Assembly: GCA_045837725.1 (NCBI GenBank)
Contig: JBEWZL010000266.1
Coordinates: 186,001 to 250,000, forward strand
Reading direction: 5' to 3'
DNA length: 64,000 bases
Source of the DNA: Vermamoeba vermiformis
Lineage: Eukaryota
Shown: one piece after another, positions 17,955 through 56,200 of the stretch
Layout: the number at the start of each line of letters is the position of its first letter
Position numbering within the stretch: the first letter of the stretch is position 1
Notes under the pieces: generated by a model
What the model saw: only the letters and a program-made list of their open reading frames with translations
What the model was told of the DNA's origin: nothing
The model's database searches: none
Made by a program: the position numbers and the translations under genes

Positions 17955-19933
17955 ATGCAGAGGTTCGTACGGCAGTTCGTGCGTCGGATGCACAGCACAG
18001 CGGACAAAGCCAGCGCAAGTAAGCGTCAATTGTATTAATTATGATATTGGCGCGGTATATTTTCCATATTATTTATGGCCGTATTATTGATGGTGCAATG
18101 CCATTATTTAACACTGCACTTTGGATCTGACGACAACAATCAGGTCCCACACTGCCCATATTTGATCGTGCCGTGCAACACGCACGTGACAATAGAGTAG
18201 CCGTGCTGTCGCATGGTCGCGAGTTCACTTACGCAGATCTGCTCGCGCACTCGAAACAACTCGCTGCCACGCTGTCCACCAAGTAAGTGCTGCATCCGCT
18301 CGACCACCACTCACGCACTACGCTAGGGACATGCAAGAGGCACGCGTCTCTTTCCTCACACCGCGCACCTACGACTACGTGCGCACGCAGTGGGGTATCT
18401 GGCGCGCAGGAGGTGTCGCAGTGCCGCTGACCTCCGCGCACCCCGCGAGTGAGTGGGAGTACCTGATCCGCGACAGTGAGAGCGAGCTCGTGGTGGTGCA
18501 TCCGTCCTTCGAGGCTCAGATGCGACCTGTAGCGGACAAGCTCGGCGTGCGCATGCTCACCTTGCACGAGGTGCCGCAGAGTGCTGCGAGCTCATTGGTC
18601 AGCGATCACGTGCCCGTGTCTACATCGCGCGCAGCACAGATCGTGTACACGAGTGGCACTACGGGCAGACCCAAGGGCGTGGTGGCCACACACGCGAACA
18701 TGCAAGCGCAAGTGCAGGCCCTGGTGAGTGCGTGGGAGTGGCGCGCAGAGGACTGCACGGTGAATGTGCTGCCCCTGCATCACGTGCACGGCATTGTGAA
18801 TGTGTTGACGTGCTGCTTGTGGTCTGGCGCGCGCTTGGAGATGTTGGACAAGTTTGACAGTCGTCAGCTGTGGCACCTGTTCATGAATCACATGTCACGT
18901 GCGCAACAGGGACTGCCTGCCCTCACGCTGTTCATGGCCGTGCCCACTGTGTACAGTAAGTAGCTGCGCATCTACTGGTGCGAGTGCGCAGTACTGATTC
19001 AGTGAACAGCCAAGTTGATTCATGAATACGATCTCATGTCACCGGAGATGCAGCGCGAGGCCAGTGCGTCATTGAAGCGACTGCGACTGATGGTGAGTGG
19101 TTCAGCTGCCCTGCCTGGTAAGTGGCACATTGCCGCCCGTGACACGTGACTGACAGGTGACACGTGTCAGAGCCCGTGTTCAATCGCTGGGAACAGATCT
19201 CTGGACATCGGCTGTTGGAGCGCTACGGCATGACGGAGATTGGCATGGCACTCAGCAATCCACTGCACGGCCCTCGCATTCCGGTAAGTCACTGTTTGAC
19301 ACCTGTCACGCGCTCACCAGTCACGCAGGGTCGTGTGGGCTATCCGCTGCCAGGAGTGCAGGTGAAGATACAAGCCGAGGACAGCACGCGACCACACACG
19401 GGAGAGCTGTTGGTGCGGGGGCCGCAAGTGTTCCGCGAGTACTTCCGCCGTCCTGAAGCCACGCGCGAGGCCTTTGACAGCGAGGGCTGGTTCTTGACCG
19501 GTGACATTGTGGAGCAGTCCGTCAGCGAGGACCTCACCAAGGGCAGCTACAAGATTGTGGGCCGCAAGAGTGTGGACATCATCAAGTCTGGCGGCTACAA
19601 GCTCAGTGCACTCGACATTGAAGGTACGTGTGGCCCATACTACGCGCTGCAGCACTAACTGTTCCCCCCCGCGCAGATCAGTTGCTCGCACATCCAGACA
19701 TTGCCGAGTGTGCCGTGGTGGGCTTGCCAGATGCTGAGTTCGGACAGCGCGTGGCAGCACTGATAGCACTGCGCAGTGGTGCAAACATGAGTGTGGAGCA
19801 GCTGCATCAGTGGTGCAAGCAGACCATGCCGAGCTACCGCATGCCGCGCACGGTGCAGTTCGTGGATGCGATCCCGCGCAATGCCATGGGCAAGGTGAAC
19901 AAGAAGGAGCTTGTAAAGTTGTTTGTGCAATAA
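17955..19933 (+). CDS. ACSF3: Malonyl-CoA synthetase (ACSF3/MatB family), probable mitochondrial presequence
   Basis: [50 protein letters not shown]. Confidence 0.9.
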
Positions 19934-20069
19934 ACACCTCATATATCTGTAGCTCACCTCGCAGTGTGGTCTAAGGACTTACATTAAGGTGCCAAGCCCT
20001 GGTAGACAGTGACCAGTGCGGCCCTCAGAACATTCAGTGGAGAGTTCTCACGCACAGCAACACAACATC

Positions 20070-21885
20070 ATGAGTACCTCTATTCAACACTACGAGTTCG
20101 ACGAGAATGCTTTCGTGGACTTGCTCACCAAGCTGATCGGTACAACCAAGGTCTAGTTAATCCAAAAACAAGTTGATTGATTTTGCGTAAATATAGGCGA
20201 GTCTAAATACGTGCAAAACAGCCCCCCTGAACTCGTGCCCGAAGGTATGAAATTAAATCAGCCAATAATCATAATTAATGGTAATTATTAGAGGACCGAG
20301 TGGTCGCGCATGTTGAGAAAGGCGAGTAGCAGTGATCTGCATGTTTACACCAATGGCTAATCATAATGCTCGATACAGTATTGGGTCCTTATCTTGCGCC
20401 CAATGGTCCCCTTCAATACAAGCGCAAGGCCTATGTTCCGGGCAGATCTAACGTGATCATCACTTATCCTGGCACCACTCAGCGCACCGTCTCATTCGTG
20501 GGCAGGTCAGTACACACCATGCACCTGTACATTGCTGAGTATAGTCTTGCAGTCACATGGACGTCGTGCCCGCCAATCCCAAAGAGTGGACGCGCGATCC
20601 ATTCACCCTGACGCGCGAAGGAGACAAGCTGTACGGGCGAGGTAACTACACTAGTCACCCCTAGCATATACATCCCGATACTCACTCCGCGCAGGCACCA
20701 CTGACTGTCTCGGACACGTGGCACTGCTCACAGAACTGCTGCGTCAGCTGGCCCAGCACAAGCCCGTGCTGTCCGTGAGTGTGGTGGCAGTGTTCATTGC
20801 AGACGAAGAGGTCGGGGATGACCCTGATGTGGGTGTCGATCACTTGTGTCGCGACGGCGAGCTCGAGTTCATCAAGCACGGTCCGCTCTACTGGCTCGAC
20901 AGCGCGGACATTCATCCCACCGTGGGCTGTGGCTCGATGATCGCGTGGAAGTTGACTGCGCACGGCAAGCGCGGCCACAGGTAAGTGACGCGCAGTGCTG
21001 CCGCGGTGACTGACAGCTGTGCAGTGGTCTGCCGCAGAATGCCATCAATCCGCTGCTGATTGCCACGCACGCACTCGACTACTTGCTCAAACAGTTCCAC
21101 CACGACTTCCCCAAGCACGCGGTGAGTACACAGTGCGGGTGTGACTGACACGTGTCACTGACGCGCGCACAGAAAGAGGCCCAGTACGGCTACGAGTGTC
21201 CCTCCACGATGAAGCCAACCATGTGGTCCCATCCCCCTGGTTCAGTGAATCAGATTCCCTCTGAGTGCGACATCTCGGTCAGTACCGCGACAGAGAGATC
21301 TCTCGCAGCACGGATATTGACACGTGTCATTTGCAGGGTGACATTCGCTTGACACCGTTCTACAAGGTCGAAGAGGTGCAACAGCGCATGCAAGAACACG
21401 TGACGTGGATCAACGAACACATTGATGGCCTGCCCTCTGCTTCGGCCTCATTCCGCAACTCGGTGAGTAGCGCATAATAGGACACATCTGTTGCTGACAC
21501 GTGCTGGACAGTTGCCCGATGGTACACGTGGTCGCGTGGTGTTGCAGTGGGACGGCACGGCATATCGCGGCATTGCATGTGATATGACTAGCGCGGGATT
21601 CAAGGCCCTGAGCGAGGCCACGCGCGAGGTGATTGGTGAGTGCAAGCCTTACGCCGAGACTGGTGCCCTGGTAAGTGACACGTGTCACGCGCGCACTCGT
21701 ACTGACCAATCACGTGACAGCCGTTAGTAGCAGACTTGCAAGAGCGCGGCTTTGACGTGCAAATGATGGGCTTTGGCGTGGGTGCAGTGTACCACGCGAA
21801 TGACGAGTACTGTTCAGTGAATGACATGCGCAAGGGCCATCAAATCCTGTTGAAGATCATCGACAAACTCGCGCAACAGCAGTGA
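20070..21885 (+). CDS. argE: Acetylornithine deacetylase (M20 metallohydrolase); includes a GC-AG intron at 20322-20378
   Basis: [71 protein letters not shown]. Confidence 0.88.
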
Positions 21886-21994
21886 GGACAGCATTCGTAA
21901 TAAGCGAGTAATTGTTATTAAACACGCGTGCCATTTACAAGTCACATTATTGCTGCAAAGATTGATCCTTTGCCTCTCTCTCTAGACTCACGCT

Positions 21995-22786
21995 TCAGGG
22001 CTTCTTGAAGTTGTACATCATCTTGTGCATGCCCAGCACCTGCACCTCGCTGTCTTCGATCAAGTGCACCACCAGCCAGCACACCACTGCAAAGCCTAAA
22101 TTCGCGCCTGCAAACCACGTGTACGCCAGGGGTTCGCGCAGTCCTACTTGCACCAACCACGCGAGTGTGAGTGTGACACCTGCCACCAGACTGCAAATGA
22201 GCGGTGTACGCGATTTGACACGTGTCATCCAGCCTCCAATGTACACTGCTGACAGCGCGAAACCGAGCGCAGACACACCTAGCGAGCGTGTTAGTGCGAC
22301 AGTATTGATATTGCCATATTTGGTCATTACTTACCTTCCATGGACCAAATTGCCCAAAAAGGAAATTCTTCTGAGAACTGCGCGTGAGGCATCAATTCAA
22401 ATGGAAAATTGAGATGACTCATCATGTAATAGAGTTTGCCCTAAACGAATTGTCAGCAACACGCCCTATTTAAATAATAGCTACGTACAATGCCAAGTAC
22501 AATACCAGCCAAGCCGAACAGATTCTAAAAAACAAAAATTAAATTTCGAAATTAATTAATAATTGACGGAACATACGCGATAAGTCTTATTGGCCTGTGT
22601 GTTCTGATCTTGAAGTCGCTTGATCATTTCTTTTTGTTCTAAATTATTCAAATAAAAGTGTCAGATCCGCTCCGTGCCTACGTAACTACTCATCGCTGCT
22701 TATGATACAGTACCATCCTCATCCAAGTAGTCCGATATGTCGTTAGAGCGCTCTTTGCGGGCAGTGATGCGTTCTCGAGTGCTCAT
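21995..22786 (-). CDS. Conserved multi-pass membrane protein of unknown function
   Basis: Spliced: MSTRERI..DYLDEDEQKEMIKRLQDQN, several hydrophobic helices, C-terminal MYNFKKP*. Confidence 0.65.
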
Positions 22787-22885
22787 TGTCGTGGTGTTCT
22801 GTTGCTGTTATTTGTACATTGAACGGCTGTGCGTACAACAGCTGAGTGAGACAACAGAAGCATAGAATAGAACATATATACACCT

Positions 22886-23564: not shown

Positions 23565-25566
23565 ATGGAGTTCTCGAACGTGCCTATGGATGGACGCAAG
23601 AAACTGACTGCAAGCACTGTGTCAATGGTGAGTACTGGTAGCACTGTCTCTTGGCCACCATCTAACGGCACGTTGTTGCAGGACGATGATTCAGATGAGT
23701 TCGAGCCGATTCAAGTGCCTGATGAAGATGACAACGCACTGCAAGGCACTCACTCTGCATTCAAACAGCCTTATCGCTCTGCTTGGCGTCCTGATGTGAG
23801 TATTTAAAATTGTTGGCCAACAGCAGTGAAATATTAGAATATTATATCAGGCTGCAACTAATTGATTGCGGACAGTTGTGTGTAATGAGAATAATATTTG
23901 TTAATTTATTGTTAATTTTAAGGAACGAGGACCTCCCGAAATTGATCCTAGCGAAATTGAATATGACGAAGAGAAAGATTTCTTGGGCGAGGGCACCTTT
24001 GGTAAAGTGTTTAGAGGTATGTACGCACAGTCTTATTTAAATCGGTCAACTCCGATAGCTTTGCGCAACGACGTTGAGATGTACTGTTGAACTGACTCAC
24101 CATCCGCAGGTCGATGTCGCGGCAAGAAAGTGGCAGTAAAAGTGCCCGTCAATCAACACCTCACCCCCGAGGAGATGAATGATTTCAGAAAAGAAGTGCA
24201 GATCATGAGCAAGATCTTCCACCCCAATGTCGTGCTGTTCATGGGTGCGTGCACTCAAGCAGGCAACATCAAGATCGTAACAGAGCTGATGGACATGGAC
24301 TTGGAGCACTTCCTCAAGACCGAAGAGGGACGCACCTTGTCGCTGTTTCAGCGCATGAAGATGGCCAAAGACGCCGCGCTGGGCATGAACTGGCTGCACG
24401 GCATCACCAAGATCATTCACCGCGACTTCAAGACCGCCAACTTGCTCGTCTCGTTCGATGAGAATCTGCGCACCAAGGTGATTGACTTTGGCTTCAGTGA
24501 AATCAAGCCCTCGATGACTGGCCAGTACCTCAAAGATCAGTTCGGACCGCGCGGCACTGCACTGTGGATGGCCCCTGAAGTGATGCAGGGCAAGGAGTTC
24601 GACGAGAGCATTGACGTGTACGCATTCGGCATTGTGTTGTGGGAGATTGTGATGTTGTTGGAGCCCTTCGCCCACCACGATGACTGGGACGTGTTCTTCG
24701 ATGCCGTGGTGCTCAAGGGCGAGCGACCGCCGCTCGATGCCGCGACCTTCAACAAGATGAACAAAGTGCCCAGCAGCACCACCACCACCACCACCAAGAA
24801 GGAGAGCAAGATTGTGCACGTCAACACCATGTCCAATCCGCTCATCACTGAACTGCCGCACAGTCTCGCGAGTCTGATCCGCGATTGTTGGAGTCACGTG
24901 CCACGTCAGCGCCCCTCGTTCAATCAGATCGTCTATCGCATCGATGAAGTGCTCGTCGACACGGCGATTGAAGACCCTCAGGGCCGTGCATTCTGGCGCG
25001 AGATGTTCTTGTTGCCGCGCAAAGAGCTGCAAGAGCGCGTCAACTGGGACGAGTTTGTGCAAGCACTGATGCGCAAGACACGACTGCAAGTCAAGCAGCG
25101 CTTCGATCACTTGTATCACTTGCTGGTGGACGCCAACAACGAGGTCACCATCCACAAGTTCAATCACATGGTCAGCTGGTTCGGTCACTTCTTCGTGGCG
25201 GAGCATGCCAATCACGTGCTCGATGAGATACGCGACATTGTAGAGCGGCCCTGGTTCCACGGCGAGATTGACATCACGCACGCCGAGAGTGTGCTGCAAG
25301 ACAAGGCTCCGGGCACCTATCTCGTGCGACTCTCCACCACCTATGCGCAGTACCCATTCACGCTCTCGCTCTCGACGAGACCGCAGCACAAGCGCATCCA
25401 GAAGGAGGTGGTGCAGGGTCAGATCGTGTTCTCGATCGTGTTGCCCGACAAGAAGACTGTGCGCCGTGCCCCCTCGCTGATTGAACTGCTCGATCTGGTG
25501 GCCAAGCCCTTCAATCTGCTCACTCCGTGTCCCAAGGACGAGATGATCACCAATCCCTACGAGTGA
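23565..25566 (+). CDS. TKL-family protein kinase with C-terminal SH2 domain (Shk-type)
   Basis: LGEGTFGKV, VAVK, HRDFKTANLL, DFG, GTALWMAPE; SH2 WFHGEI..YLVRLS..PFTLS. Confidence 0.92.
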
Positions 25567-25740: not shown

Positions 25741-27342
25741 ATGGAGTCATTCAACAACTTGTTCGAGTCTCCGCTAGTGAGTGTCGATGGATTTGCCAAG
25801 ACTACGAAAGCTATTCTCGACGAAGTGCGCGCTGAACTGGATGCAGCTCCGGCACTCGACCTCGCGGATGTCAATATAGAGTGCGTGTTTGGGGTTAATA
25901 CTATTTTTAAAATTCATTCCATAATTAATAACGAATATTTTCGCTAGTTGTGACGACTTGCGTTATAGATCGCCAAAAGAGCAGATCCAAAGTGCGATCG
26001 ACGCGGCAATGGTAATTTATATTAATTGAGTGCAGCAGAAACTATCATTGACTACTTATACAGGCCGATATTGCTGACAATCCCCCTTTTACTTCACGAG
26101 GTAAGATCCACATGCTATTCTGAGAGTAGTCATTATCCTATGCTTCTCTTTCATATATACGCAGCTCCTATTAACACCGTGCACGCCCCAGACAAAGTTG
26201 ATGTCAAGACAGTGCTCGAGCGCTATCACATACCCAGCTACGAGGAGTTGTCGCGCAAGAAGAAAGAAGCGCCGCTGCACTGCATCAAGTAAGCGCCGTA
26301 ATAATACTATATTATACATATATATATAGTGCACATATTCTTGTACATTGATGCCGGTACTCGCAGACACGCACGATGGGCGGCAGAACAAACGCGGATC
26401 TTGCAGCGCAAAAAAGAAGTGAACTACTTGACTGAAAATGTCAACAGTCATCTCGATGTAAGTGTCACGTGCATTCACTGAACTGTCGATAGCTGACACG
26501 TGTCATTCACAGCCCGAGGCCCCCACGGAGCCGATCGACAGCGAGGACGTGGTGCTGTCCATCGCGCTGTATCACCCGAGCAAGAACACCAAGACGCAAG
26601 AGTACCGCGTGCTGGGCCAACAACCCCTCACGGCACTGCGCGACAAGCTGTACTGTCTCAGCGATCACATGCTCGATGGACCCAAGATCAAGAGCGGCTA
26701 CTTCTTCGTCGAGCACACCTTCTACAACGACATGCGCGATCAGAACACGGATTATTCCAAGTACGTACTTGACAGTTAATACTTGGATGATGATGACACC
26801 TGTCAAACACTCACTCTGACACGTGTCACAGGACTGTGATCGACTGGGCCGAGGAGATGAAGCGAGTGACGCGAGTGATGCGCGAGAGACACGAGGCAGT
26901 GGTGATGAAACGACCGCGCGGACTGACCAAACAACACGCGATTGGCACGTACATCATCACACCGGCCTCGACACTGCACGCTGCGGTGATGGAGAACACG
27001 CGCTTCGTGGACCTGAATCTGCGCATTGGCACGCCGTACCTGTACTGTCACCAGGGCAACTGTCTGCACCACATGATCGTGCACGAAGTGCGGCGCATTG
27101 ATCGATCGATGGACGTGCTCAACCGACTCGCCTATCCGCTGCACGTGTTCCAGTCCAAGATTCGACGCAAGAAGTGTCGCATCTGTGACACGTGTCCCGC
27201 CAAGTACGTGACGTATGGCGACAAGATGAGTCCCGAGAACCCCTGCTTCTACTGCGACAACTGCTACCGCTCCCTGCACTACGACAGCGAGGGCCGCTTG
27301 TTGTACAGCGATTACAAAGTGTTTCCGTATTATCACGAATAG
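25741..27342 (+). CDS. SNAPC3: snRNA-activating protein complex subunit 3 (SNAP50)
   Basis: QPLTALRDKLYC, SGYFFVEHTFYNDMR, LRIGTPYLYCHQGNCLH, CRIC..PENPCFYCDNCYRSLHY. Confidence 0.92.
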
Positions 27343-30127: not shown

Positions 30128-31916
30128 TCAGCTGTGCGGCACTGAGTCGCTGTCACTGCTGTCGCTGCTGTCACTGCTGTCACTCGGTGCCATCGTCATT
30201 GTGCTCAGCGCGGCATTGCTTAGCGGGGTTGTGGCAGGGTTGGTCGCCCCAGCGGCGGTATTGCTACCAGTGGTATTGCTGTTGCTTGGAGTGGCTTCGA
30301 GCGGTAGTGTCGTGGCGTGACTGAGTGTCGTGCTGTGGTGGTCTTCAGTGGTGGGCGTGGCAGTGGTGTTGACACTAGTGCTGGTGGCACTGTTGGGGGT
30401 GTTGGGGCTGATCACGGCGTTTGGTGAGCTATTTTTAGCATCAACTGCAGCACTGGGTGCTTTGATTTTGATGCGAATGGATGGTCGAGTGATAGGTGTG
30501 ACAGGTGTCACTGGGGTGACATTTGAATTATTCCGCTGCGTGTCAAGGGTCGTTGAGTCGTGTGGAATGATGTTTGACGCTTCTTGTGACGCGTAACTGA
30601 CAGGTGGAGGGGCAACTGACTGCAACACCTCGTTTGACACTGGATTTGACAGGTCAGTTGACACGTGTCGCTTGTTCTGTCCCTCGTCCTCCTCGTCAGC
30701 TCGTTTTCTCTTGCGCGCAGTGACATCACGCCGCGCATTGCGGGCAGCAATGAGTTCAGGGTGCTGCTGATAATAACTCGCGAGGTAGTGTTCGCGATCA
30801 GTGCGGTACTGCATCATATTCGCACTCAACATGTGCTTCAACTTGCGGTACTGTTGCTTGTACAGCTGCACCAGATTTGACAGGTGTGTCTTGCGGCGTG
30901 TCACGAATTCTTTTTCAGTCATGGTGTTGACAGTACTGCAAATGACACGTGTCAATCAGCGACTCGCGCGGATATCAAGACGTACCTCAAATAGTCATCC
31001 ACGAGCTCAAACTGTCGTTGTGTCACATCGTGCGAGCCCTCAGTCAGGGCTGTCACTGGCTCAGGGTCTGCGCGCTCAAAATAGATCACGCCATTCATGA
31101 AATCCGTGTCGGAGTGCTGCGCGGTGATTGCTGCCACCTCTTCGTCGTCGTCTTCACTCGCCACGGACGACGAGTCACTCTCCTCTTTGTGCTCACTCGC
31201 AGCATGCACACCGTGACTCGTGTTGGTGTTGTTAGCTGTGTTAGTGTTGGCAGCACGAGGGGCAGTGGTGTCAGTGTGCGTGCTGCTCACTCCGACCTCG
31301 CGCAACACTTGCTGCAAGCGACGACGTGAAGCCAAGTGTTCAGGACTGGGCTCGTGTCGTTCAAGTGGCACGTCATCGAGTGTCATCACTGTGCTGACTG
31401 GCACGTGACTCACTGGACTGAACTGCTGTGAGGGCTTTTTGCCTTTTTTGGCACTGACAGATCCGGGAGTTGTGAGGCCGAGTGCTTGACGATGAAACAC
31501 GCAGTATCTATACGACAATATAGATCACTATTAATCGCGTGTACAATAAATAGGACGCGTGGAAAAGTACCTCGGATCAGGATCAGCGAGTGCGACAGGA
31601 TTGGTGCACTGTTTGTTGGACTTGGGATTGACGTTGTCGCATTGCTTGAAGGGTGCAGCAGGGTCTTCGAGGATGTGTTTGGCGCAGAAGCCATAGCCCT
31701 CCATGCGTCTGCGAACTGTTAGTGTACTGGCTTCGGATCTGCTTTCAACACCAGCTGCAGCAGTGATACGTACTTCTGATGGCAGATCTTAAGGCTGTAG
31801 CTGCATAATAACTTTCCGTCAGCATTGCGATGAATATTCGTCCCCTCTCGGGGGTGACGGATCGGAGGCTCGCCGTTACTGTCCTCCAGCGAGAGATCGA
31901 TTAGCATGGTACTCAT
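30128..31916 (-). CDS. zf-C3Hc3H protein, KANSL2/INO80D-like chromatin complex subunit
   Basis: LCSYSLKIC..GYGFCAKHILEDPAAPFKQC..CTNPV..RYCVFH; later RRKTHLSNLVQLYKQQY helix. Confidence 0.75.
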
Positions 31917-33063: not shown

Positions 33064-36000
33064 TTACGACTTGTCATTTAACAACGCTTGCTGCTGTGTT
33101 TGCCAAAATTTGATTTTCTAAATAAGGCAATCGAATCGTTAGTCACGTGCTCACCACGAGTTCAGCCAGGTACGTACCTCGCGAAAGGGCGTGAGAGTGG
33201 CGTTGACAGTGCTCGCGCGCTCATTGTACACGGCACGAATCTCATCACGCTGCTTGAACAGCTGTTGTTTGCGCTCACTCAGCGAGGCCGTGCCTGCCAG
33301 CAGTTCAAACTCGCGCTTGGGGGACTGTTTGAGCTCCACTCTCGGCGTACCACTGCTGTCACTGCTCTTCGGACTCTCGGCACGGCCACTGTCACGTGTC
33401 GGACTGCCACTGGCTCGCTTGGGAGTGCTAGGTGCTTCCATGACACGTGTCACGTGCTCGCCCAAGTAGCGCCGCTCGAGCTGTTGAGCCCAGTGTTCGG
33501 GTGTCTGTGTGGATGTCAGTCCTGTCACGTGATCACTGACCACGGTCCTACCTGTGCTTGACGGAGCTCAGCTTCGAGCACGCGAACAGACTCGGTGAGC
33601 TGATGCACTTGTGACTTGACGCGCTGGTACTCGCTGTCCAGTCGTGTCTTGTTCGCATCGATCGTGTGGTGCGCTGTCTCTTCTTCGTGCAACTTCTTCT
33701 TGAGTTCACTGGCCTTGACAGTCATCAGATTGACACGTGTCACATCGGTCTCGATCAGCAGTTGACTCTGCACGTCATTGTTCTCTTTGAGCAGATTGGT
33801 GATCCATCGACTGCGCACGGCTGCTTCTTTGTCGAGACGTGCTCTGAACACGTGTCAGATATTGCCTAATTTGGACTGAACTATATTTAGACTCACCGAG
33901 ATTGTAGCAGTTCACGCAACTTTGCTTGACATTTTTGCAGTTGTTTTTCGAAGTTGTCTTTCATTTGCATCATCTCCACACGCGACTTGATCTCCTCTTG
34001 CATCTCCTGCTGAATTTGCGCAATGATTGGTCCAGATTGAGCTCCGAGATGTTGTTCAATCTTTGCACGCAGTTGCAATTGTTTTTCCGCCAAGACTTCT
34101 TTCCACTGCGACACCTGCAAAGAGCTGTCAGAATGAATGTGACGTGACAGGTGTCAATCAGCGTACCTCGCGCGTGACTCGATTCTTGCCGATGAGTCGC
34201 TCGTTCTTCGCACGCAAGGCATCCACGCGGCGCTTCCAAGTCTTGACTGCGTCAGTGAGCTGTTTGACACTGCCTTCGCGCTTGACACGCTCTTCGGTGA
34301 CACTTTGCAACTGTTGTTCGCTCTGTGACACGTGTCAGTCAACAGTCAATCACGTGGCACCAAGTACTGTACCTGCTCGAGTTTCACAGCTAGTTGCGAC
34401 TGCTGTTCAGTGAACGAGGTGATGTCGCGCTCAATGGCACTCAGCGCAGCACTCAACTCCGCGGGCTGATGGGACTCGTCACGTGACACTGCTGTCACTT
34501 CAAAAGGACTGCCGAACACGTGCTGATACACGCCACTGCTGTCCAACAACTGCACTGACAGCACTAACTTGCCCTTGCAGTGTGCCGTGTAGTTCACTGC
34601 ATAATGGCCTGTCTGCAAATCTGTCACGCGCACTGTTTGCGAGATCTTTGCACTCTCATCGCTGGCCACACTGCTCGGCTCAGCGGTGACAGGTGTGTTG
34701 ACAGGCGTGGCATCTGTCACGTGTGGCGAGTCACGTGACGGCGAATTGAGTTCTTCATCGAGCTCCTCGTCATCGAGGGCAGTGAGTTCGCGCTCCTCAG
34801 TCCAGGCCTCGTCGTCTTGCACCTGTTCGATCAGTGTGTTCACATCCACCGCGCTCTGTCCGGCACTCACATACGCGACACTCACTGACAGCACTGCACC
34901 ACCGCGCTGCACGGCATTGTCGAACAGATCACGTGTCACTACAGTGAACTGCGTCTCTTCATCGACCAGGGCCACACACGTGCCCAGGCCAGTGCAGTAC
35001 GAGGTGTGTGGATCGCACTCTGTGGCTTGCACGTGAATCACTGGCAGACACGTGTCAAAGGACTCGGTGGACAGCTCGTCAAATGTGACGCGCAGCTGAT
35101 AGGTGCCTGCGACCTCTGTTTGAAACGTGCAAATATAGCTCTGTGGACCACGTGATTGGACCTCGCAAGGGACGGTGATTGGACCCACCAGTGCAACACT
35201 CGGAGTGACACCTGTCACATCGGCACTCGTGCTGTACGTCAGTTCGAATGCTGTCGGGCTGTTGACAGGTGCGCCGTTCATGAAACACGGCCCAGTGACA
35301 TCTAACTTGTCCACTCGCGGTTGTGCTGCAAACATGTCAGTTACGCCGTTGACAGGTGTCACAGTATCGCGATATTTACCCGTGAGCAGATTGCGCAAGT
35401 ACTTGAGCACGACTACACGCCCCCGCGAACAGAGTGCAATGGGTGGCACGAGCAGTGGATTGTAGTCGAGCTGCAGCACGAGCAGGTCGGTCAGTCGTGC
35501 CAGGGAGGGCGGCAACTTCTCAATGTCGTTGTGCTGCAGCTCCAAGCGACGCAGTGCTGTCAAGTGATCGATGGTGACGGGCACGTGCTTCAAGTGATTG
35601 TGCCCGAGCTTCAACTCGCGCAAGTGCACCAGCTTGGCAATGTCAGGCGGCAAGTGCGTGAGGTGATTGTTGCTGAGATCGAGTTCTACGAGCTGTGTCA
35701 GTGTGAACAGCGCTGCGTGTGTCTCGAACAGCTGATTGCTGCCCACACGGAGCACTTTCAACTGCTGCAACTGCGCCAGCTGCGCACTGACCGCGGTCAA
35801 CTTGTTGCGACTGAGCGTGAGTTCGGTGAGGGAGCTCAGTTCGCACAGGTACGCGGGCACTTTGTCGAGCTGATTGCGGTACAAGTTGACGCTGCGCAGT
35901 GGTGTGCGGTGCTGGGCCAGGGCTGACAGCTCACTCGGCAAGCGGTGCAAGTGACAGTTGGACAGATCGAGCTGTCCTGTGCGCGCGGCACGTGATACGC

Positions 36001-36947: not shown

Positions 36948-38711
36948 CTATTCCTGTTCTGGTTCCTCGTGTGCAGGTCTGTCCGCTCTGTTCGGCTGCA
37001 AGTGCACTCTGCCGCGCAGTTTGGCACAGCCGTAATAGACGAGCACGAGCTGTTTGAGTTCGTTGTAGCCCTGTTCGCCACTCACGCGCAGCCACTCCTC
37101 CAGTTCACTGCGCAGACGTCGCTCGCTCAACAGTTGCACGCGCAGTCCTCGGGCCACCAGGGCTTCGGCGACTTGTTCCGTGGTCAAGCTGTTCACGCCC
37201 TCACGTCTCAAGTACTGCGAACAGAACGCGGTGAGACAAGTGCTGCATTGGAGTGCCTGAGACACGTACCTTGTCGTCCTCTTGCAGCTCTGCAAAGTGT
37301 TTCTCGAACATTTTCACTGCCCAAGCGTGCGGCCAGAATGTTGTCAAAGGTCTGCAAATGACACGTGTCAAACACTAGCTGCACAAATATTTTCTATATA
37401 TTGTACTTACTTGCGCACATTGAGGGCTGCGAGCACAGCTTTGAGTTGTGAACTACTCCACACTTCAGGGGACACACGGTCAAATCCCCGCGCAATCTCC
37501 CGCTCGATGTCACTCACCCACGCACCAGTCACGGGGAATTGCTAATGACAGGTGTCAACAAAGTGTCACAAAGGTGTCACATCTGACTTACGTCACGGAT
37601 TCGCAGCAGAGTTTTCATTTGCAGAGCAGTGGTGGAGTGGTGGTGCAAATAATACGACTGCCAGTACCGAGTGCGCGCCAAGACATCATCAATGAGGGGC
37701 TGTGACACGTGTCAAACACTGATCAGCAAGCACGTGACTTACCTTAGAGCCGAGTTTGAATGTGGACGGCAAGTAGCTGGGGTAAGTGACGAGCACGAAG
37801 GGCAGCCAATAGACTGAGAGCGGCAACAGCTTCCACATGACCAAAATAGGCAATATTTTGCGCGCATCGGCGTAGAATTGGCTAAATAGGGAATTAGTTG
37901 AGCTAAAGTGACAGCTGTCAAACCGAGGTCTCTACCGTTCAAAGTGATATTCTTCGCGTGTCATTTCACGATTTTCTTCGCTGTTCAGTGAATCACATGT
38001 CAGACAAGCCGACTACTAAATAAGGCAATAGTACTCACGCGACACGCTGTTGCAGTGCGCGGACAGTGCGCCAGTTGAAGTAGAGTCCTTTGAGTCCAGC
38101 TGCCAAGTCCTGAATGAAGCGCAGCAGTCGGCGCATGATGAATGCGATCTTGCCGCCCAACTAGCGACAATAGGCACGTGAATACTAGGCATCTATAGGT
38201 CACTCGAGCACCGTACCTTGCGCGATTTGAACTGGTCCCAAGTGTCAGGTCTGGGTCTGTATCGATCGATGAATGTTCTGACAGGCGACAGTGGCGTGTA
38301 GCGCTGCAGACTCATCATGCGCAGTCGCATCGTGTGGCGCAGCATCATCAACTTCTCGCGCACCGTGTAGCCGATGGAGATCTGACGAGCTTGTACGAAA
38401 GGTGATGTGCGGGTAATATGTTGATGTGTATGTGCAGGGTTAGATTGAAATAATGTGACTTGTCGAGTGGATCTGCGATCTGAAAACAAATGAGTTCATT
38501 TTAAAAATTACGATAATTATCGTTTCTCTGGCAGCTGCATGTATTTACCTTTGTTATTATTTTTCAGGGTGCTAAAAAATATTGGCTTATTTGTTGGTGA
38601 CAGTGTCGTTGCAACGGATCTGCCAAACAGGATCTGACCCTTGCAAGGCTTTAGAGGACTGCTAGTGGTCATCACAGTACTTCTAGTACACGTAGATATT
38701 ATCCGCCACAT
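36948..38711 (-). CDS. LETM1-domain mitochondrial protein (LETMD1-like)
   Basis: Presequence-like N-terminus; YLPSTFK after a hydrophobic segment; YLRREGVNSLTTEQVAEALVARGL..LRSELEEWL. Confidence 0.75.
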
Positions 38712-40343: not shown

Positions 40344-42698
40344 ATGGGCGACAGAACGAATGATTCTGATTCGATCGGACAGCGAAAATTACCCGATGAT
40401 CAACATACGACCACTCGTAATATTATGAATAATGATAATGTCGTGCCCAGCGCGAGTAGTCCGGTCATTCTGCGGGCAAACAGTAATAATTCAACGCCCC
40501 AGCAAAATGACGAAATAATTAATAATTCAAATAATGCTGCTCATGCGCCAACTGATAGCAATAATAATGCCAATAATAATAGCGGTAATATTGAAAGCCC
40601 GAAAAAAGCTGAAGTGCCACTTGAATCTATGCTGAACGATCCCGAAGGATTTTACGCACCACGTACGCGCAAGAGTTCAGACAGCAAGCGCAATCAGCTG
40701 CATATTCGTGCTGGATCTGGTCACAAACAGAGCAGAAGTATGGACATTACTGCTTGGGCTAAGATCTTGAAGGGAGAGAACAGTGAAGCTGAAGAGAAAA
40801 AACGAGCATCGATTGATAGCAAAGAACCACCTCCAACTCGGAGCTCAAGTCGCCAGCTCAACAGACGAGATTCGGTCATAGTCACTTTCTTTTCAAAATA
40901 TCCTTTTACTTATGATTTATTTTCTGCGCTGTAGCTTCCATTTATTTATCTACCACTATAGCATACGCACGCCATATTTCCTTGACCTAGCGTACTTTGT
41001 TTAATTCTACAGCGCAAGTAATGGATGAGATCGTCTCACCACGTACCAGCGCCACACCGAGCACTGCACCACCGCGCATTGAAACTAGGCCCTCGTACGT
41101 AATCATAGAGATATTGATGATCTTTCATATCATTACGCTGCAGTTACATTCATGTACTGAAATTTCCGAGCATTGAATTCAATTATCCAATTAATTACAT
41201 GGATTGCTGCGAGTCAATTAAATATAACTCGTGCAGCATACTGATCTATATTTAGATTGCTGCCGCGCAAGTCACCAGAAGAAGAGGCACAACATCTGCG
41301 CGAGTACGAGGCCATGGAAAAAGCATTCTTGAAAAAAGGTGCGCACTTGCTGTCAACATTGCTGCAGGTACAGAACTGACTTGTTATTTCCTAATTTAGA
41401 AAAGGAGCGTAAGGCACGCAAAGAAAAACTGAAAACTGAGCGTGAGAAAAGAATTCTCGATTCGACTCCCAAGTGGCGCGAGATTATAGACCACTGGGGC
41501 AGGACGTAAGAGTCGCACTTTGACACATCAAATTTGATATCTATTGTGACACTTTTGACATTTCTGACACGTGACAGGCGAGTGAAGAATTCGCTGAAAG
41601 AACTCAGTTGGTTCGGGGTGCCACCAATTCTGCGCGGCGAGGTAAAAGCGCGAGTTAATTGACAGTCAGGGATTGACACGTGTCAAACACAGGTCTGGAA
41701 GAAAGCAATCGGCAACAACTTGCACTTGACAGGCGAGCTGTACGAGATCTTAGTGCACCAAGCACAGCAAATGAAAGACGCCAAGGCAAAGAAGATTGAG
41801 GCAAGTGTCATTCAGTGACTCGCGGTGCAGTGCAGCGATTGACACGTTTGACAGATGAAAATCAAGGGCCGCTCGAACACAATAGTCGACATTGCACTCG
41901 ACTTGCCGCGCACATTCCCCGCGCTGTCCTTCTTTCAACAGGGCGGTCCCTCGCACCACTTGTTGCGCAATGTGCTCGAGGCCTACACGCTGTACAGACC
42001 CGATGTCGGCTATGTGCAGGGCATGTCGTACATTGCTGCGCTCTTGCTGCTCTACATGGACGCCGAGGACGCATTTGTAGCGCTGTGCAATCTGTTGAAC
42101 CGCAGTCTGCACTACTGCTTCTATCGCATGGACATCAAGCGAGTACGTACTTTGACACGTGTCATTGGCTGTGTTGCGTGGACTGACACGTGCTGGACAG
42201 ATGAAGCGCTACTACACGGTGTTTGACATGTTGATGAAAGAGTACATGCCACGTGTCTACACGCACTTTCAACAGCTCGGCATTCACACTGAGATGTACA
42301 TTCTCGACTGGTCCGTGCACTGCTTCCATGACTGACTGTTTGACATTTATTGACACGTGTCATTTTGTAGGCTGTTGACGTGTTTTGCTAAGACGTTGCC
42401 GCTCGACATGGCCACGCGCATATTTGACTTGTATATACTTGAAGGCGACAGCTTTTTGTTCAGAGCGGGCTTGGGTCTGTTGCGCTATTGGAAGAACACT
42501 GAAGAACTGTTGGAACGCGATTTTGAAGAGTGTCTCAAGCAGCTGAATCATCACTACTCGCCGACTGAGGAGATTGAAGAGGAAGAACTGTTCCAGGAAA
42601 TCAATTTAATTCCCCTCACTCCGAAGCACTACAAAGAACTGCTCGAAGAAGGTGAACAGGCTGATGATGGTGAAGAGGATGAACCCTCTGATCAATGA
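40344..42698 (+). CDS. TBC-domain Rab-GAP (TBC1D12/14-like)
   Basis: RPSLLPRKSPEEE, GVPPILRGEVW..IGN, IALDLPRTFP, YRPDVGYVQGMSY. Confidence 0.88.
40898..40995 (+). other. Canonical U12-type AT-AC intron
   Basis: Donor ATATCCTTTT, branch TTTCCTTGAC, acceptor TAC 9 nt later; excision gives an open frame FFSNLFNST. Confidence 0.9.
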
Positions 42699-42833: not shown

Positions 42834-44374
42834 TCAATCAGTCTCCATGTCCAGCAGCTCTTGTTGTGCGCGCACAGCAGCTGACTCGTCCTCTTTTCTC
42901 TTGTGCAGCGAGGCCAGTTCATCGATCACACTCGTCAACAGATTTTTGTTCTTTTTCTGCTCTTCTTCGAGTTGTTTTTGTTTCTTCTTCCACTCAAGTG
43001 TTTTGAAAGTGTCTGCAATGTCTTGTTTGATCTTCTCTTCTATCATCGCCCACTCTTTCAATTCTTTCACAGTCTTCACAATCAGGGTCTGTTTCGCGCG
43101 TCGTACGTCATCAATCTCACGCGCGGTGTATCCGCCATCTTGTTCGAGACGAGCAATCAAGTCGTTCTCGTACATTTGAACTGCTTTGCAGGCTGATTTG
43201 GGCTTGAGTGGTGCACCTTGAATGACACGTGGATAACATTGCACGAGTTTAGCGAGGTGTTTTAGTCCGTCTTCACCTTCGCCAAGCAGCACTTTGTTGT
43301 AATTGGCTGCTACTTTCGCGACATTAGCAGTTTCAACATCACCTTGGGCTATTAGGTCTGACACTGCTTTGCACAACTGTTCTGGTGTCAGAGGTTGCGG
43401 ACCTTTAGGCTTAGCTGGGCGGGGAAGAGCAGCGCCAGGAGCACCTGGAGGGGGTGGTGGAGGGGGAGGAGCGACATTGGTGTTGGAAGTGTCAGTGACC
43501 TCTTCGATGACAGATGGTGCGACGGGTGGTGGTAAGAAGTGATTGATCGGTGAGTGTCGCGGTGGTGAGTGCTGAATGCTGTGAGCGAGCACTTGATCAA
43601 CAGTCAGCGAGGCCAGCACTGATTTGTATTGCTCCAACAAGGCACGCATTTGCTGCAGATCTCCTTGCACTTGCTGCAATTCACCGAGCTTGCTGCGCAT
43701 GAGTTCGAGTTCAGCAGCGAGTTGAATGGTGTGCGCGACAGTTGGCGGACTGGTGCTGAGCGCAGTGTGGAGCGCATTGTCCTTGGCTTGTTGGGCGTGG
43801 AAGAACGATGCGACCCACGACTGGAATCTGCGCACTCGACCCGTGTTGGGCGTGTCACATGCCATGGATTGTTCGATATTGTCTTTGACACGTGTCATTT
43901 CAAGACTCGGAACATCGTCTGCCTGTTGTTTCATCGCATTCTCGAGGTGCGAGGGGTCTGTCAAACTGTTGCTGACACTCAGCACGGTGAAGTCATCAAC
44001 TTTCAGTGAACCAGACATGACCATCTCCGCTGCACCCGACTTGCCTTTTATGGGCATTGCTTCAGTCGCGGTGTGCGGTGCTGGACTGTCCACTACTATT
44101 TCAGGCAAGTTCTCCGTGTTGTAAATAGATTCGTCCATGCACGATTGATCACGTGTGCTGTACTCGTCCATATCGGGTATTCTATCGAGATCATCGTCCT
44201 GTCACGTGATAATTAATATAAATAAAATTGATAAATCTCAAATCGCCGTACTGAGTCATTATCGTTGTTGTGGTCCCGTTGCAGAATTGAGTCAGAAACG
44301 CTGTTCGTCGAGTGATAAGGCTCGAATAGTGTATCGTCATCGAGTGGTGGCTGTACAGATAGGTTCATATTCAT
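42834..44374 (-). CDS. Hypothetical protein with coiled coils and a polyproline tract
   Basis: 445-aa ORF plus an upstream exon joined in phase 0; PPPPPPPP; family not recognised. Confidence 0.7.
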
Positions 44375-47339: not shown

Positions 47340-47395
47340 CGTCAATTCAGCACCCATGTACAGTATATAGTATTTAACATTAGCCACGCACCTGT

Positions 47396-51479: not shown

Positions 51480-51609
51480 GTTGCGCTGTCTGGTAAAATT
51501 TGGTTGCATGAGAAATTCAAACCAAATTTATTGCAAAGGTGAACACAACACATTAGACCATTAAATTTTGGATAGACTTTCATATAAAGCTTAAATTCAA
51601 ACAACAGCA

Positions 51610-52858
51610 ATGAACAAACTCAAAGTCAGAGATGTGGTCATCACAAGACACGATATGGTTGTTGTCGGCGAAAATGAATCGATTGAAAATGTGCTTAAGG
51701 TTAGTTGCCATAGACATATTAAGATTGAAGTATAAGCAACTGGGTATTAAAATTTTTCAAGTTTCGTTCATGAAAATATTTTGATTACTTTTATCTTACT
51801 ATTTTACTTACAACCCGATATTTTTTTAGACACTCGAACGTCATAAAATACAGTCAGTACCAATCAAAACTTACGATGGCACAATTGTTGGATTTTTTGA
51901 TGTTTTAGATCTGCTCTGCTATTTGGTGTCTGGCCACGAAAGCAAAGACAATATTGGCACATTATATCAAAAGAGCGCAACACTGCCATTCCAGCGAGTG
52001 TTAGATATGATTGGTAAGCATCGTAACGTGTCGATATGAGTTTTCGACTAAAACTCGATAGATTTATCAAAGCGAAATCCTTATGCCCCTGTGCATCTGG
52101 ACGATCCTATTGGCGCAGCTCTACTGTTATTCGCACAGCCAGTCCATCGAGTGCCAGTGCACGATGAGAAAGAGAATCTCGTTGGTATTTTGTCGCAGTC
52201 AGACCTCTTAAAGGTAATAGCAGGTGATTACAAACGAGTCGTTATTAACGCGGTGTATATTAGTACTTTGTACATCACCCCGAGCTCTTGAGTGAGATCA
52301 ATGACTTGAGCGTGTTAGACCTGCGCTTGGGCACGAGTGAAGCCAAGCTTGACAAGCTGATCAGCATCAACAAGAAGTTGCCCGCGCTTGAAGCATTCAA
52401 ATTGGTACGCGTAACAGCACGACATAGGAGTACGGTGATACTAACACCTATCAGATGAACACGCACTTCTTGTCCGCAGTCGCAGTGGTGGATGATGAAG
52501 GACATTTGTTCTCATCAATCAGTGCCACTGATTTGCGGAATATCTCCTTCAATCTCGCCGATGAATTCTCACTCAAAGCACTCGCTTTGCCCGCGCAAGA
52601 GTTTATCGACTTGTCTCGCAAGGCCCGTGGTCAGGTACGTGCTATTACAACTATGACTAACTTTGCTGACACGTGTCACAGCACGCTGATTTCCTCGTGT
52701 GGTGTCAGCCAGGCTCGTCACTGCGCGATGTAATTCAGCACATGTACAACAACCACGTGCACCGCGTCTATTTGGTCGACAACTACATCAACTTCTTTGG
52801 CGTCGTGTCAGTCACTGATATTGCTCGTCTGTTGTTGGAACAAATGAGTGGACTGTAA
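51610..52858 (+). CDS. Four-CBS-domain protein (AMPK-gamma/Sds23-like)
   Basis: IQSVPI..VGFFDVLDLL, VHRVPV..GILSQSDL, SAVAVVD..SISATDL, HVHRVYLV..GVVSVTDI. Confidence 0.85.
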
Positions 52859-53264
52859 TGCATGTGTAGCAGTGAAAGTAAATAGTGTTAGAATTAGATT
52901 TCATTCCCGAAATCTTAACGATGCACGTGATTCGAAATTTCACGTAAAAATATTTCCAACCGCTGCCCTTTAATATTAACAACTTTTATATTGTTGATCA
53001 CGACAAGTAGGCGGCGGTGTATATTTATTAACGCCTACTCGCGATTCTGTCATTAAGTTCGTAGATCAATTGTAAGCCAACGGAAAACATAATTTAATTT
53101 CACAAAATGAGCATAACAATATAAGCACAATTATTGAATATTGTCGAGGCACGAGGAATTACAAATATCAGCAACTGATTTATTGAATTGAATTCGAGTA
53201 TCTTTTTTTTAGTTTTGATTAAATCGGTCAATACTGACTAACTGAAATATTTTAGCAATTAGCA

Positions 53265-56200
53265 ATGTCAGAAACACCAGTATTGGGCAGTTTAAATAAG
53301 ACGCTCGCCGAGAAAAAATTGGCCAAGTACGATCCCGCGCTAGAAAAGAAAGTGCGTGCCTCACTTGCAATATTAGTGCCAGAGGTAAATTTAGAATTTA
53401 TGACGGCAACAATCATTATCTAACACGATTAAACTCAAGCACAAAGAAACGTTGGAGAATGAAAAAATGAGCTTGCAAGATGCGCTGAAAGACGGAATCG
53501 TATTGTGCAAGTATGTACTCTTTGCCATGTTAGAATATGGCTAATTGCGTAATTAGATTGATGAATAAGATTGCACCGAACAAGATCTCACGGATCAACA
53601 CCATGCAAGTTGCGTTCAAGCAAATGGTATTGGTTATATTATTATTGTGATTCGTACATGGGACTAACATCTTACGCAGGAAAATATTGCAAACTATTTG
53701 AAAGCATGCACACAAATTGGCTTGCAAGAGATTGAATGCTTTGAAACGAATGATTTGTTCGAAGGCCGCGATTTGATGGCTGTACGTAGCCTCAGTTATC
53801 ATAAACATGCCTCAAATAACTATATTTATATACTAGGTGCTGAACAACTTGAACACATTCTTGACGCTGCACGAGAAGTACGGCGATCAATTGCTCGATC
53901 AACTCAAACAACGACCGTAAGTCACGTGACACTTGCCAAATGCATGTCGGCCGTTAATTGACACCTGTCATTAGCACTGCAGCAGAGGCACGCAACGAGC
54001 CAAAGTCCCCTGCAACACCAGCACCGCGCATCAACACCGTCAAGTCCATCACACCCACTGCCAGTCCAACCGATCAAAAGGGTCCCTCGACACTGGGCAA
54101 GAAACCAGCGCTGTGGGGCCAGTCCTCGGAGACTATGTGTAAGTCAATCAATAGTTAGTTTGGCACTGTGCAGCACTGACTCGGAATTAACAGCCTCGCC
54201 TACTTCGGCCTCCGTAAGCAGTTTGGAACACGATATTCAAACCAAAGAAGAGTTCAAATACATCCCTGAACTCGAGCGAACGGCGCGACAGTGGATTGAA
54301 GCAGTGACTGGCATCAAACAACCAGAGCTGACCTTCCCTCAGTATCTGAAGTCTGGCATTGTGCTGTGCAAGTTAATTAACACCGTCAAGCCCAACGCTG
54401 TCACCAAAGTCAACGAGGGTACTGTGGCGTACAAACAGATGGAGAACATTGAACATTACCTGAAAGCGTGCAGTGAACTCGGTCTGCATCAACAAGATCT
54501 CTTCAACACGTCAGATTTGTTCAATGAAAAGAACGTCAATCTTGTCATTAACAGCATTCACGTGTTCGCGCATTTCATCGAGAAGTTGCCTAATTACAAC
54601 GGACCCAGAATTGAGAACCCGCAAACAGCGAGAAATCTGTTCTCAGCCTCATTGGTCGAAGGCTCGGCAAGTGACTTCTTGAGTGAAGATCCGAATGCTG
54701 TGCCCGAGCCCTTGACGCCTGAGCAACAAGAACTATTGGACTGGGCCAATGCGCTGCTACGTCGATTTGACACTGCGTTCAAACTGAAGAACTTGACTAC
54801 AGACGTGCGTGACGGTGTTAAGCTCATCAAGCTGCTGGAAGTTGTGACTAAGGGATCACAATTGGGCTCGTACACAAAACAACCCAAGTTACTTTGGCAC
54901 TGCATGCAGAACGCCACGTTAATTCTCCGCTTCTTGGCACAACAGACCTTTGAAAAGGTGCAATGCCGTGCTACGGACATTGTGATGGGAAATCTCGATG
55001 CCGTCGTGCGCTTGCTAACCTTCATCAGAAACAAATTCGATTTGGACTACATGTTCAAGAAACTGATTGCTGAGGCATATTTGTCGCCCGAGGACGTGTT
55101 GTTCGAAGAGACAGAAGAGGTCATTCAAGTGCCTGACGAGGACATTTCACATCTCAAAGACGAACAGCCAGTGATTGTTTTGACACCTGCCTCACCTGTC
55201 AAAACCACAACTACCAGTGTCACCACAGTGCGTAAGACATCACAGCCACAAACTCCGGTCGCCATTGCCAAGCCCGCAGAGACAGCAGTTACCGCCACGC
55301 AGACACAAACTCCAACTAAGGAGCCAACCACTCCCAAAACGGTGCAAACACCACAAACCCCTCAGACACCTAGCACACCGCAGACCCCACAAACACCGAG
55401 CACACCTACCACTACCAAGCCCATTGATATTCCCTCTCCACGCGACTCACCATCCACTCTTGAGCCTTCTTCACCCAAAACAGGCTCACCACTGAGTACC
55501 TCACGAGGTTAGTACCGCCATTAATGTTAATGTATGCTTGCTAACTCTGATCGTCAGACTCGACAAAAAGAGACAAAAAGAGCAAAGAAAAACAAAAGAA
55601 ATCCAAAGACAAGAAGAGCAAGGAGAAGAAGTCACGCTCCAAAGACAAAAAATCATCACTGGCCTCGTCAAGTGAGGGTCCAGCGAGCCTGTCATCAGAG
55701 CAGTTGTCCGACGAGTCCAAGTCATCACGCAAACACGAGTCCCCGCGCAAAGAAAGACCCCTCAATGTCGTTGTGACCTCTGCCCCCGAGCCCACACCAG
55801 CTCATCAAGAGCCTGTCACAACCACCACTGCAGCCACTACTAAAGCTACCGTGGAGACAGCAGCAGGCACTCAGCCCACCACTCCTTCACAGCCTCAAGC
55901 TGCCGCTCAAACCGCCGCAGTGTCTCAACCTCAAGCCGCGGGACCTCTCGCAGCTAGTGATAGCGCTGTCACTCAACCACACCACGTTGAGCGTGATCGC
56001 ACCGTCAGCATCTCAGCTGACAACACGAACAATCCAGTGGTGCGCCGATTGGTGCGCAGTCACACTCGCATTCAGACCTCAGAGCCCGAGAGTAAGTTCT
56101 ACCATTGCAATTGTTACTGCATTAATGCTTGTCCTAGAATTGGCCCGTGTCGCGAAGGCTCAAGGAAAGATGCGCCAACACGTGGCTAATGAACTGCTGC

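Follow-up and report, generated by a model that had tools for sequence, protein, structure and literature searches.

The 64,000-nucleotide stretch of Vermamoeba vermiformis contig JBEWZL010000266.1 (assembly GCA_045837725.1, positions 186,001 to 250,000 of the forward strand; hereafter the window) harbors many copies of the 12-letter palindrome TGACA(C/G)(C/G)TGTCA, which a first-pass annotation took for a strand-symmetric 3′ splice signal that supplies intron branch points and possibly seeds intron gain. We favor a different explanation, to which we assign a probability of about 0.6, namely that the palindrome is a selected gene-body DNA site, probably recognized by a TALE-class homeodomain dimer, that has overwritten old branch points where both uses fit. 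This reading is built on the abundance, shape and placement of the motif, its flank-dependent match to the branch-point interval of introns and its conservation in one gene. The motif strings quoted in the annotation were all found at their places, and co-option was correctly recognized for a minority of copies. The larger and more unusual gene-body pattern was missed.

Abundance and placement of the palindrome

The exact palindrome occurs 2,793 times in the 43.3-Mb host genome, which is compact and rich in introns, compared to 4 occurrences of the reversed control. The variant TGACACCTGTCA occurs 1,060 times against 1 for its control, and no other GC-balanced 12-bp palindrome is common. The genome was handled as amoebozoan-like, and the named relatives of the TBC gene in the window include amoebozoans, with 60-61% identity. 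Gene structures were predicted in an 860-kb sample that includes the window and 796 kb drawn around and beyond it (blocks of C266, C3 and C6). The gene model was self-trained and ab initio, with donor, YAG and coding terms and the branch-point term left out, and it gave 1,991 introns, mostly of 45-65 nt, of which 1,660 had a posterior of at least 0.9. In addition, 195 exact copies were sampled regardless of position from the three blocks, from the listings for contigs C2, C6, C8 and C11 and from one more C3 copy; these listings did not extend to the C...G flank class, for which subtraction gives 13 sites in the genome. The sampled copies comprised 126 in introns, 40 in coding sequence (CDS) and 29 in intergenic DNA, and motif density per Mb was 313 in introns, 26 in CDS and 37 between genes. 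Copies in CDS numbered 14 versus 0.2 after synonymous shuffling, and the peptides that coding copies force were themselves enriched (DTC[HQ], 6 versus 0.4).

Within genes, the copies avoid starts. In the 860-kb sample none of 63 intronic copies of TGACA(C/G)(C/G)TGTCA (P = 9e-12) and none of 30 coding copies (P = 7e-4) lay within 500 nt after a predicted ATG, and the 94 kb upstream of genes contained none. Not one of the 60 motif introns was a first intron, and five of the six intergenic copies fell between convergent genes. Across 233 genes the palindrome co-varies with CACGTG, CArG-like, MEF2-like and TTCA(C/G)TGAA words, all of which rise away from the ATG; CArG-like, MEF2-like, E-box and TTCA(C/G)TGAA words are also denser in introns than between genes in the 860 kb. 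A forkhead-like word, TRTTTAC, shows the opposite trend and falls away from the ATG. The family labels CArG, MEF2, E-box and forkhead are those which we presume to suit these words. Motif density is 0.9 per 10 kb at low GC3 and climbs to 4.9 at high GC3. It is patchy (window positions 19000-44000), with 18 copies in the 64 kb of the window versus 70 in 860 kb. Long poly-C and poly-G runs are also strongly over-represented in the 860 kb, C12 being counted 126 times.

A role as promoter element for the next gene was rejected because the 48.6 kb of intron before tandem neighbors hold 19 copies, a lower density than in convergent pairs (44 copies, 53.9 kb), and because density rises with distance from any ATG. 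Neither copies nor introns showed clear nucleosome-scale spacing, and copy spacing below 1.2 kb had no clear period. Paired copies were absent from viral contigs, and among 80 TBC loci examined for the motif in other eukaryotes a copy was present only in the sibling locus L206. A link to the N6-methyladenine zone after start sites, as outlined in part of a published account (PMC12695648), finds no support in the sequence, the observed/expected (o/e) ratio of ApT being flat at 1.04-1.11. No published report of the motif in amoebae was found, subscription papers and supplements lying outside the coverage of the search; the exact string occurs in two Ebola virus papers among the matches listed.

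Shape of the motif and a candidate TALE binder

The palindrome has the form of a dimer site. Inverted TGACA half-sites were counted 105 times with a 2-nt spacer, and no other spacer from 0 to 20 gave more than 10 pairs. In the 860 kb the center was CG in 70 copies, CC/GG in 24 and GC in 5, with two CA/TG variants; the commonest single change was central C to G (24), compared to two cases of the bZIP-type TGCCACGTGTCA. Outside the half-sites a T is preferred, and half-sites also recur as direct repeats, for example TGACACTT-TGACA. At six loci (L126, L130, L162, L164, L165 and L166), (TGACACTT)n half-site arrays with an 8-nt step run into a full palindrome near donors.

The genome encodes ten matches to Homeobox_KN (PF05920). 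Locus L116 matches PKNOX1 (E = 6e-22), TGIF2LX and MEIS2, and the helix WFINARRR of MEIS/PKNOX/TGIF type is present in L117 and L124. TALE genes are known from Amoebozoa according to one section of PMC6219170. Excerpts of three further sources give the TGIF1 crystal DNA site as ATTGACAGCTGTCAAT (PMC6158717), the MEIS3 motif as TGACAGGTGTCA (PMC5449588) and the dimer seed of Drosophila Hth as TGACAGCTGTCA (10.1101/706473). By analogy with these sites, the palindrome is most likely a target of a TALE-class homeodomain dimer. If so, the TALE domains of L116-L125 should prefer TGACACGTGTCA over TGACAGCTGTCA.

Overlap with probable intron branch points

In motif-free introns the branch-point words CTAAC, CTAAT, CTGAC and TTAAC place their A in a peak 11-19 nt before the 3′ end, and we defined branch-point distance as an A of TGAC at -11..-19 from the intron 3′ end. 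A U2 snRNA with the standard GUAGUA was found at 149 bits, its 5′ part being GTGTAGTA; three genes score equally, and four longer U2-like matches reach 56-57 bits (C202, C49). The window contains 18 exact copies, 14 in predicted introns and 4 in CDS. Eleven of the 14 intronic copies lie at branch-point distance, where uniform placement expects 3.0 (P = 5e-6), so within the window the motif-to-acceptor distances are non-uniform and the annotated tendency of introns to end on the motif near the acceptor holds. As a general rule it does not, as only 26 of 103 intronic copies outside the window are so placed (17.4 expected, P = 0.018). All sampled intronic copies together give 37 of 117 (20.4 expected), these tests using the copies left after removal of nine introns with a posterior below 0.8. 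The window is thus an extreme case that exaggerates the branch-point effect.

The base before the motif determines most of this pattern. Copies at -11..-19 amount to 12/16 with a preceding C, 20/62 with T, 4/15 with A and 1/24 with G, a ranking that follows branch-point strength in motif-free introns, where CTGAC is enriched 16.9x, TTGAC 1.5x and GTGAC 1.1x. When loci chosen for their C flank are included, 19 of 25 C-flanked copies lie at branch-point distance (4.9 expected), and C-flanked copies are sense rather than antisense by 27:4. A YTRAY at branch distance on the sense strand is therefore found for a subset only, and the strand symmetry that the first-pass annotation held relevant to splicing is not supported, since only one strand carries the flank needed for a branch point. 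Independently of the gene model, a YAG follows 0-5 nt downstream genome-wide in 191 of ~389 C-flanked, 606 of ~2,660 T-flanked and 213 of 1,218 G-flanked oriented copies; a few sites enter twice, and arithmetic supplied the totals for C and T. The YAG excess over the G class corresponds to about 260 copies, near 10%, and the 195-copy sample gives 19% (37/195). About 10-20% of copies, chiefly those preceded by C or T, thus appear to sit at a branch point.

For this subset, the first-pass proposal of a DNA motif co-opted as branch point stands, as the main role of the motif it does not. Of 23 introns with a T-flanked copy at their 3′ end, 5 have a further strong branch point, compared to 65% of motif-free introns. 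Given YTGAC at branch distance, the rarity of rival branch points and the alignment of one window intron with an ACTAAC of L206, a subset of copies very probably supplies the branch A, and use of that A for branching would follow from its position. CTGAC is extended to the full palindrome in 6 of 126 cases at branch points versus 2 of 40 elsewhere, and TTGAC in 10 of 56 versus 14 of 120; as extension is equally frequent at both, such a peak would be expected to grow from branch points already in place. Among introns with the copy far upstream, 50 of 72 retain a strong branch point of their own. These strand, pentamer, pyrimidine, offset and extension counts come from a separate tabulation than the distance-to-acceptor tests.

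Two smaller annotated features were also only partly borne out. The pyrimidine tract of motif introns is indeed weak (0.57 at -12..-4), but motif-free introns score 0.61 and the weakness is a property of the whole genome. The copy overlapping the donor at 21671 is present, but it is no one-off, as 6 of 117 intronic copies begin at intron offset 5, as in GTAAG followed by TGAC. The variant TGACACCTGTCA is oriented 13:3 toward sense in introns and 12:11 in CDS, perhaps by TGACAG adding a spare acceptor. Among the G-flanked matches listed, about 20 of 100 have CTGTT ahead of the motif, seen from the opposite strand as a following AAACAG, which is far above chance. AAACAG as a ready-made acceptor was rejected, as 0 of 15 G-flanked copies were modeled so, with 7 of the 15 unclassifiable in short loci; the flank looks like an extended DNA site rather than an acceptor.

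Conservation and age of the introns

Of the 36 motif bases in three copies of the TBC gene of the window, L206 keeps 33, compared with 238 of 504 in the remaining intron DNA and 51 of 78 at four-fold positions; the figure covers one gene and comes from an alignment that favors matches. The fully conserved copy is the donor-side one (42153..42164), and the orthologous copies contain no indels. All five aligned TBC introns are common to L206, and motif intron 42143 (codon 430) has the same position and phase in the distant eukaryote loci L242, L257 and L270. For the TBC branch-point introns at codons 296 and 466, distant loci yielded no counterpart.

Paralogs with 38-53% identity to L096, L174 and L176, all of one gene family, have the branch-point motif introns of these loci without the motif and with ordinary branch points. 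With the motif masked, 143 motif introns yielded three similar pairs. Introns common to a paralog numbered 3 of 11 with a branch-point motif, 12 of 20 with a motif elsewhere and 136 of 280 others (3/11 versus 136/280, P = 0.22). Median length was 54 for motif introns versus 57, and branch-point motif introns were short of phase 1 (phases 22/9/20, P = 0.005). Judged by these comparisons, the introns tested appear older than the motif, and intron gain by the motif, which the first-pass annotation had raised, is not supported, though single introns may have arisen in this way: motif introns lack common flanks, and paralogs carry the same introns without it. The motif does not seem to offer a new route of intron gain.

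Preferred mechanism and rival explanations

In the explanation that we prefer, TGACA(C/G)(C/G)TGTCA would be a double-stranded DNA site for a TALE-class homeodomain dimer, favored by selection in gene bodies away from promoters. It would build up by point substitution where the sequence is free, mostly in the ~55-nt introns in which copies are found. Its purpose, the weakest step, would preferably be to repress spurious transcription or to organize chromatin in promoter-distal DNA. In a short intron, the 12-mer could fit at the 3′ end only where a branch point is retained, and a C or T would therefore precede it, with the A of TGAC 13-18 nt before the AG. A former CTAAC-type branch point would have been turned stepwise into YTGAC+ACGTGTCA, and the same bases, whose position is observed, would now serve as DNA site and U2 branch point. 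A few hundred natural cases would then exist in which the same bases serve both, and these would provide a way to study splice signals reshaped by constraints unrelated to splicing.

Several points weigh against this explanation. The assignment of copies to introns, CDS or intergenic DNA rests throughout on the ab initio gene model, and the conservation figure carries the limits given with it. Animal TGIF/MEIS sites have a central GC or GG in the excerpts cited, where CG dominates here. In 3-kb loci outside the training set, 6 of 42 copies lie within 500 nt of a predicted ATG (36% expected, P = 0.002), so the depletion near start codons holds there but is weaker and not absolute. The gene-body bias is common to several unrelated motifs, which a single protein does not explain. 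With regard to branching, TTGAC is only 1.5x enriched in motif-free introns and T-flanked copies may branch elsewhere; 8 of the 19 C-flanked branch-point copies have a second strong candidate, and L206 reads CGAC for TGAC in the copy of intron 42311, where the T is lost.

Among the alternatives, the view that the motif primarily serves as a strand-symmetric 3′ splice signal, with selection acting on the pre-mRNA through a branch point or a splicing-factor site, would account for the 11 of 14 window copies and 37 of 117 overall at branch-point distance and for the high density in introns. We consider it improbable, as the remaining 80 of 117 intronic copies and all 69 non-intronic ones lie elsewhere, and C, the flank most favorable to branching, precedes fewer copies than any other base (about 389 of 5,586 oriented copies, about 7%). 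Moreover, the model passes over a suitably placed YAG after 14 of 84 upstream copies, none of 15 G-flanked copies followed by AAACAG was modeled as an acceptor, and the copy fully conserved in L206 is on the donor side. A main role in splicing is not supported. Even less can be said for seeding of intron gain, whether through new copies that give a branch point and an acceptor or through arrival with an introner-like mobile element, and we regard it as highly improbable. The failure to find two of the TBC branch-point introns in distant loci, the low paralog-shared fraction, the phase skew and the recurrent AAACAG flank would agree with it, but the scarcity of similar pairs among masked introns, the motif-free introns of paralogs in one family, the shared introns of the TBC gene and the ordinary intron lengths argue for older introns.

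A benefit-free DNA-level bias, in which mutation is slower at bound sites or gene conversion prefers motif alleles, with purging limited to copies near promoters and to those that would break splicing, is unlikely but deserves consideration. It would fit the co-variation of CACGTG, CArG-like, MEF2-like and TTCA(C/G)TGAA words with the palindrome and their rise from the ATG, as well as the rise of motif density with GC3, and the exchange of a conserved I-Y for T-C by a one-mismatch copy in the SNAPC3-like gene could be a cost of drive. Set against this, no drive mechanism was identified, and conservation above four-fold sites fits selection, but protection as well. Decay of 5-methylcytosine is ruled out as the bias, since introns lack CpG depletion (o/e 1.2-1.6) and only two center variants are CA/TG. 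Finally, we hold it very unlikely that the copies are transposon excision footprints, G-boxes for bZIP/bHLH proteins or RNA hairpins. The core does contain CACGTG, itself 2.95x enriched, but the change of a central C to G, which destroys ACGT, is tolerated and bZIP-type flanks are rare. Indels are absent at the SNAPC3 near-copy and within the orthologous copies of L206; the hairpin reaches -2.1 kcal/mol, and other GC-balanced 12-bp palindromes are not common.

Motif copies and genes of the window

Motif copies and related features of the window. Positions are counted from the first letter of the window; the position of A is that of the TGAC A relative to the intron 3′ end.
Feature	Position	Strand	Context
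Palindrome	19158..19169	+	G-flanked; its TCA and the next G form the acceptor of intron 19118-19170; gene model only
Palindrome	21146..21157	+	C-flanked; A at -25 of intron 21122-21172; homolog-supported
Palindrome	21318..21329	+	T-flanked; A at -17 of intron 21278-21336; acetylornithine deacetylase gene
Palindrome	21676..21687	+	Overlaps donor of intron 21671-21720; separate CTGAC downstream in same intron
Exact copy	22216..22227		Predicted coding sequence
Palindrome	26494..26505	+	C-flanked; A at -17 of intron 26458-26512; SNAPC3-like gene
TGACACCTGTCA copy	26794		Intron 26761-26831, shared with palindrome 26817
Palindrome	26817..26828	+	C-flanked; A at -13 of intron 26761-26831; SNAPC3-like gene
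One-mismatch copy	27186..27197	+	SNAPC3 coding sequence; encodes D-T-C
Palindrome	30943..30954	-	T-flanked; A at -17 of intron 30936-30985; gene model only
Exact copy	33441..33452		Predicted coding sequence
Exact copy	33731..33742		Predicted coding sequence
Palindrome	34326..34337	-	C-flanked; A at -13 of intron 34323-34372; gene model only
Palindrome	37359..37370	-	T-flanked; A at -17 of intron 37352-37410; gene model only
TGACACCTGTCA variant	37546..37557	-	3′ end of intron 37542-37591
Palindrome	37703..37714	-	T-flanked; A at -13 of intron 37700-37742; gene model only
Palindrome	41674..41685	+	T-flanked; A at -17 of intron 41642-41692; TBC/drainin-like gene; 11/12 bases kept in L206
Intron with ATTGACACGT	41807..41854	+	ATTGACACGT aligns with canonical ACTAAC branch point of sibling L206
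Palindrome	42153..42164	+	10 nt past donor of intron 42143-42200, not branch point; 12/12 bases kept in L206
Palindrome	42351..42362	+	T-flanked; A at -18 of intron 42311-42370; 10/12 bases kept in L206
Exact copy	43886..43897		Predicted coding sequence
Palindrome	52667..52678	+	C-flanked; A at -13 of intron 52635-52681; gene model only
TGACACCTGTCA variant	53959..53970	+	3′ end of intron 53917-53974

Rival branch-point words were noted in several of these introns. In intron 19118-19170, a CTGAC upstream of the motif, with its A at -18, is more likely the branch point than the G-flanked palindrome. Intron 21122-21172 has a second CTGAC nearer the acceptor than the palindrome, and intron 52635-52681 a canonical ACTAAC upstream of the motif with its A at -22. 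The palindrome in intron 21278-21336 is likely its branch point. Homologous proteins support many of the boundaries: P0074 yields nine introns in the deacetylase gene, including 21122-21172, 21278-21336 and 21671-21720; five of six homologs support the boundaries of intron 26761-26831; one of six gives the exact acceptor of intron 26458-26512; and introns 41642-41692, 42143-42200 and 42311-42370 of the TBC gene agree with homologous proteins. At the SNAPC3 near-copy, T-C replaces the I followed by Y or F of 14 of 16 homologs, with no indel.

A probable 57-nt GC-AG intron at 20322-20378 of the deacetylase gene corresponds to 19 codons that P0074 lacks, and the gene model split the gene here. 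The donor of intron 41807-41854 may be GCAAGT at 41801 (GC-AG, 54 nt, frame unchanged), bases that are conserved in L206. The gene at 23565-25566 encodes a kinase, whose C-terminal part is presumably SH2-like by eye.

Comparison with known systems

A U2-type branch point is a YTRAY paired with U2 GUAGUA. C- and T-flanked copies resemble it in placing their A 13-18 nt from the AG, on the sense strand and in the branch interval of this genome, whereas the eight bases past TGAC would be fixed by a second, DNA-level constraint and most copies lie elsewhere. Introner elements have a recurring sequence near intron ends. Here, similarity outside the 12-mer is absent, with three similar pairs among 143 introns, and the tested introns appear older than the motif. 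The bZIP G-box has an invariant ACGT core and variable flanks such as TGCC, while the palindrome varies in its core (24 copies) rather than toward TGCCACGTGTCA (2).

With TALE dimer sites (TGIF1, MEIS, PKNOX and Hth), as far as the cited excerpts describe them, the palindrome shares the inverted TGACA, the 2-nt spacer and the preferred 5′ T, and TALE genes are encoded in this genome. Unlike those sites, it has mostly a CG center and thousands of perfect copies, which avoid promoters, fill gene bodies and overlap splice signals and codons. Engrailed antennas consist of half-site and near-copy arrays around full sites, according to a portion of PMC6987225. Arrays such as (TGACACTT)n around full sites are similar, but perfect sites dominate here and lie away from promoters, and the motif is not a member of this class.

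HIP1 of cyanobacteria (GCGATCGC) is likewise a single hyper-abundant palindrome within and between coding sequences; HIP1 itself is conserved beyond background and, in the part of the source that treats it, has no evident gene-level regulatory role (PMC5861425). As for conservation between genomes, the present motif offers 33 of 36 bases in three copies of one gene. It differs in its eukaryotic host, its 12-bp length, its transcription-factor-site shape and its avoidance of promoters, and it works like HIP1 at most; it is no HIP1 member, being a different word in a spliceosomal eukaryote. Cognate methyltransferases and a 10-90 kb periodicity are further traits of HIP1. A eukaryotic HIP1 counterpart, in which a TALE protein and other transcription-factor families mark promoter-distal gene bodies through thousands of selected sites, rewriting branch points and conserved codons, is a tentative extension that we put forward with reserve. 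Transcription-factor sites are expected at promoters, whereas here a perfect site and factor-like words avoid starts and fill introns and exons. If selected, they would amount to a code, written in the sequence of a compact eukaryotic genome, that marks gene bodies, and if the parallel with HIP1 is true, gene body and promoter would be distinguishable from the sequence itself.

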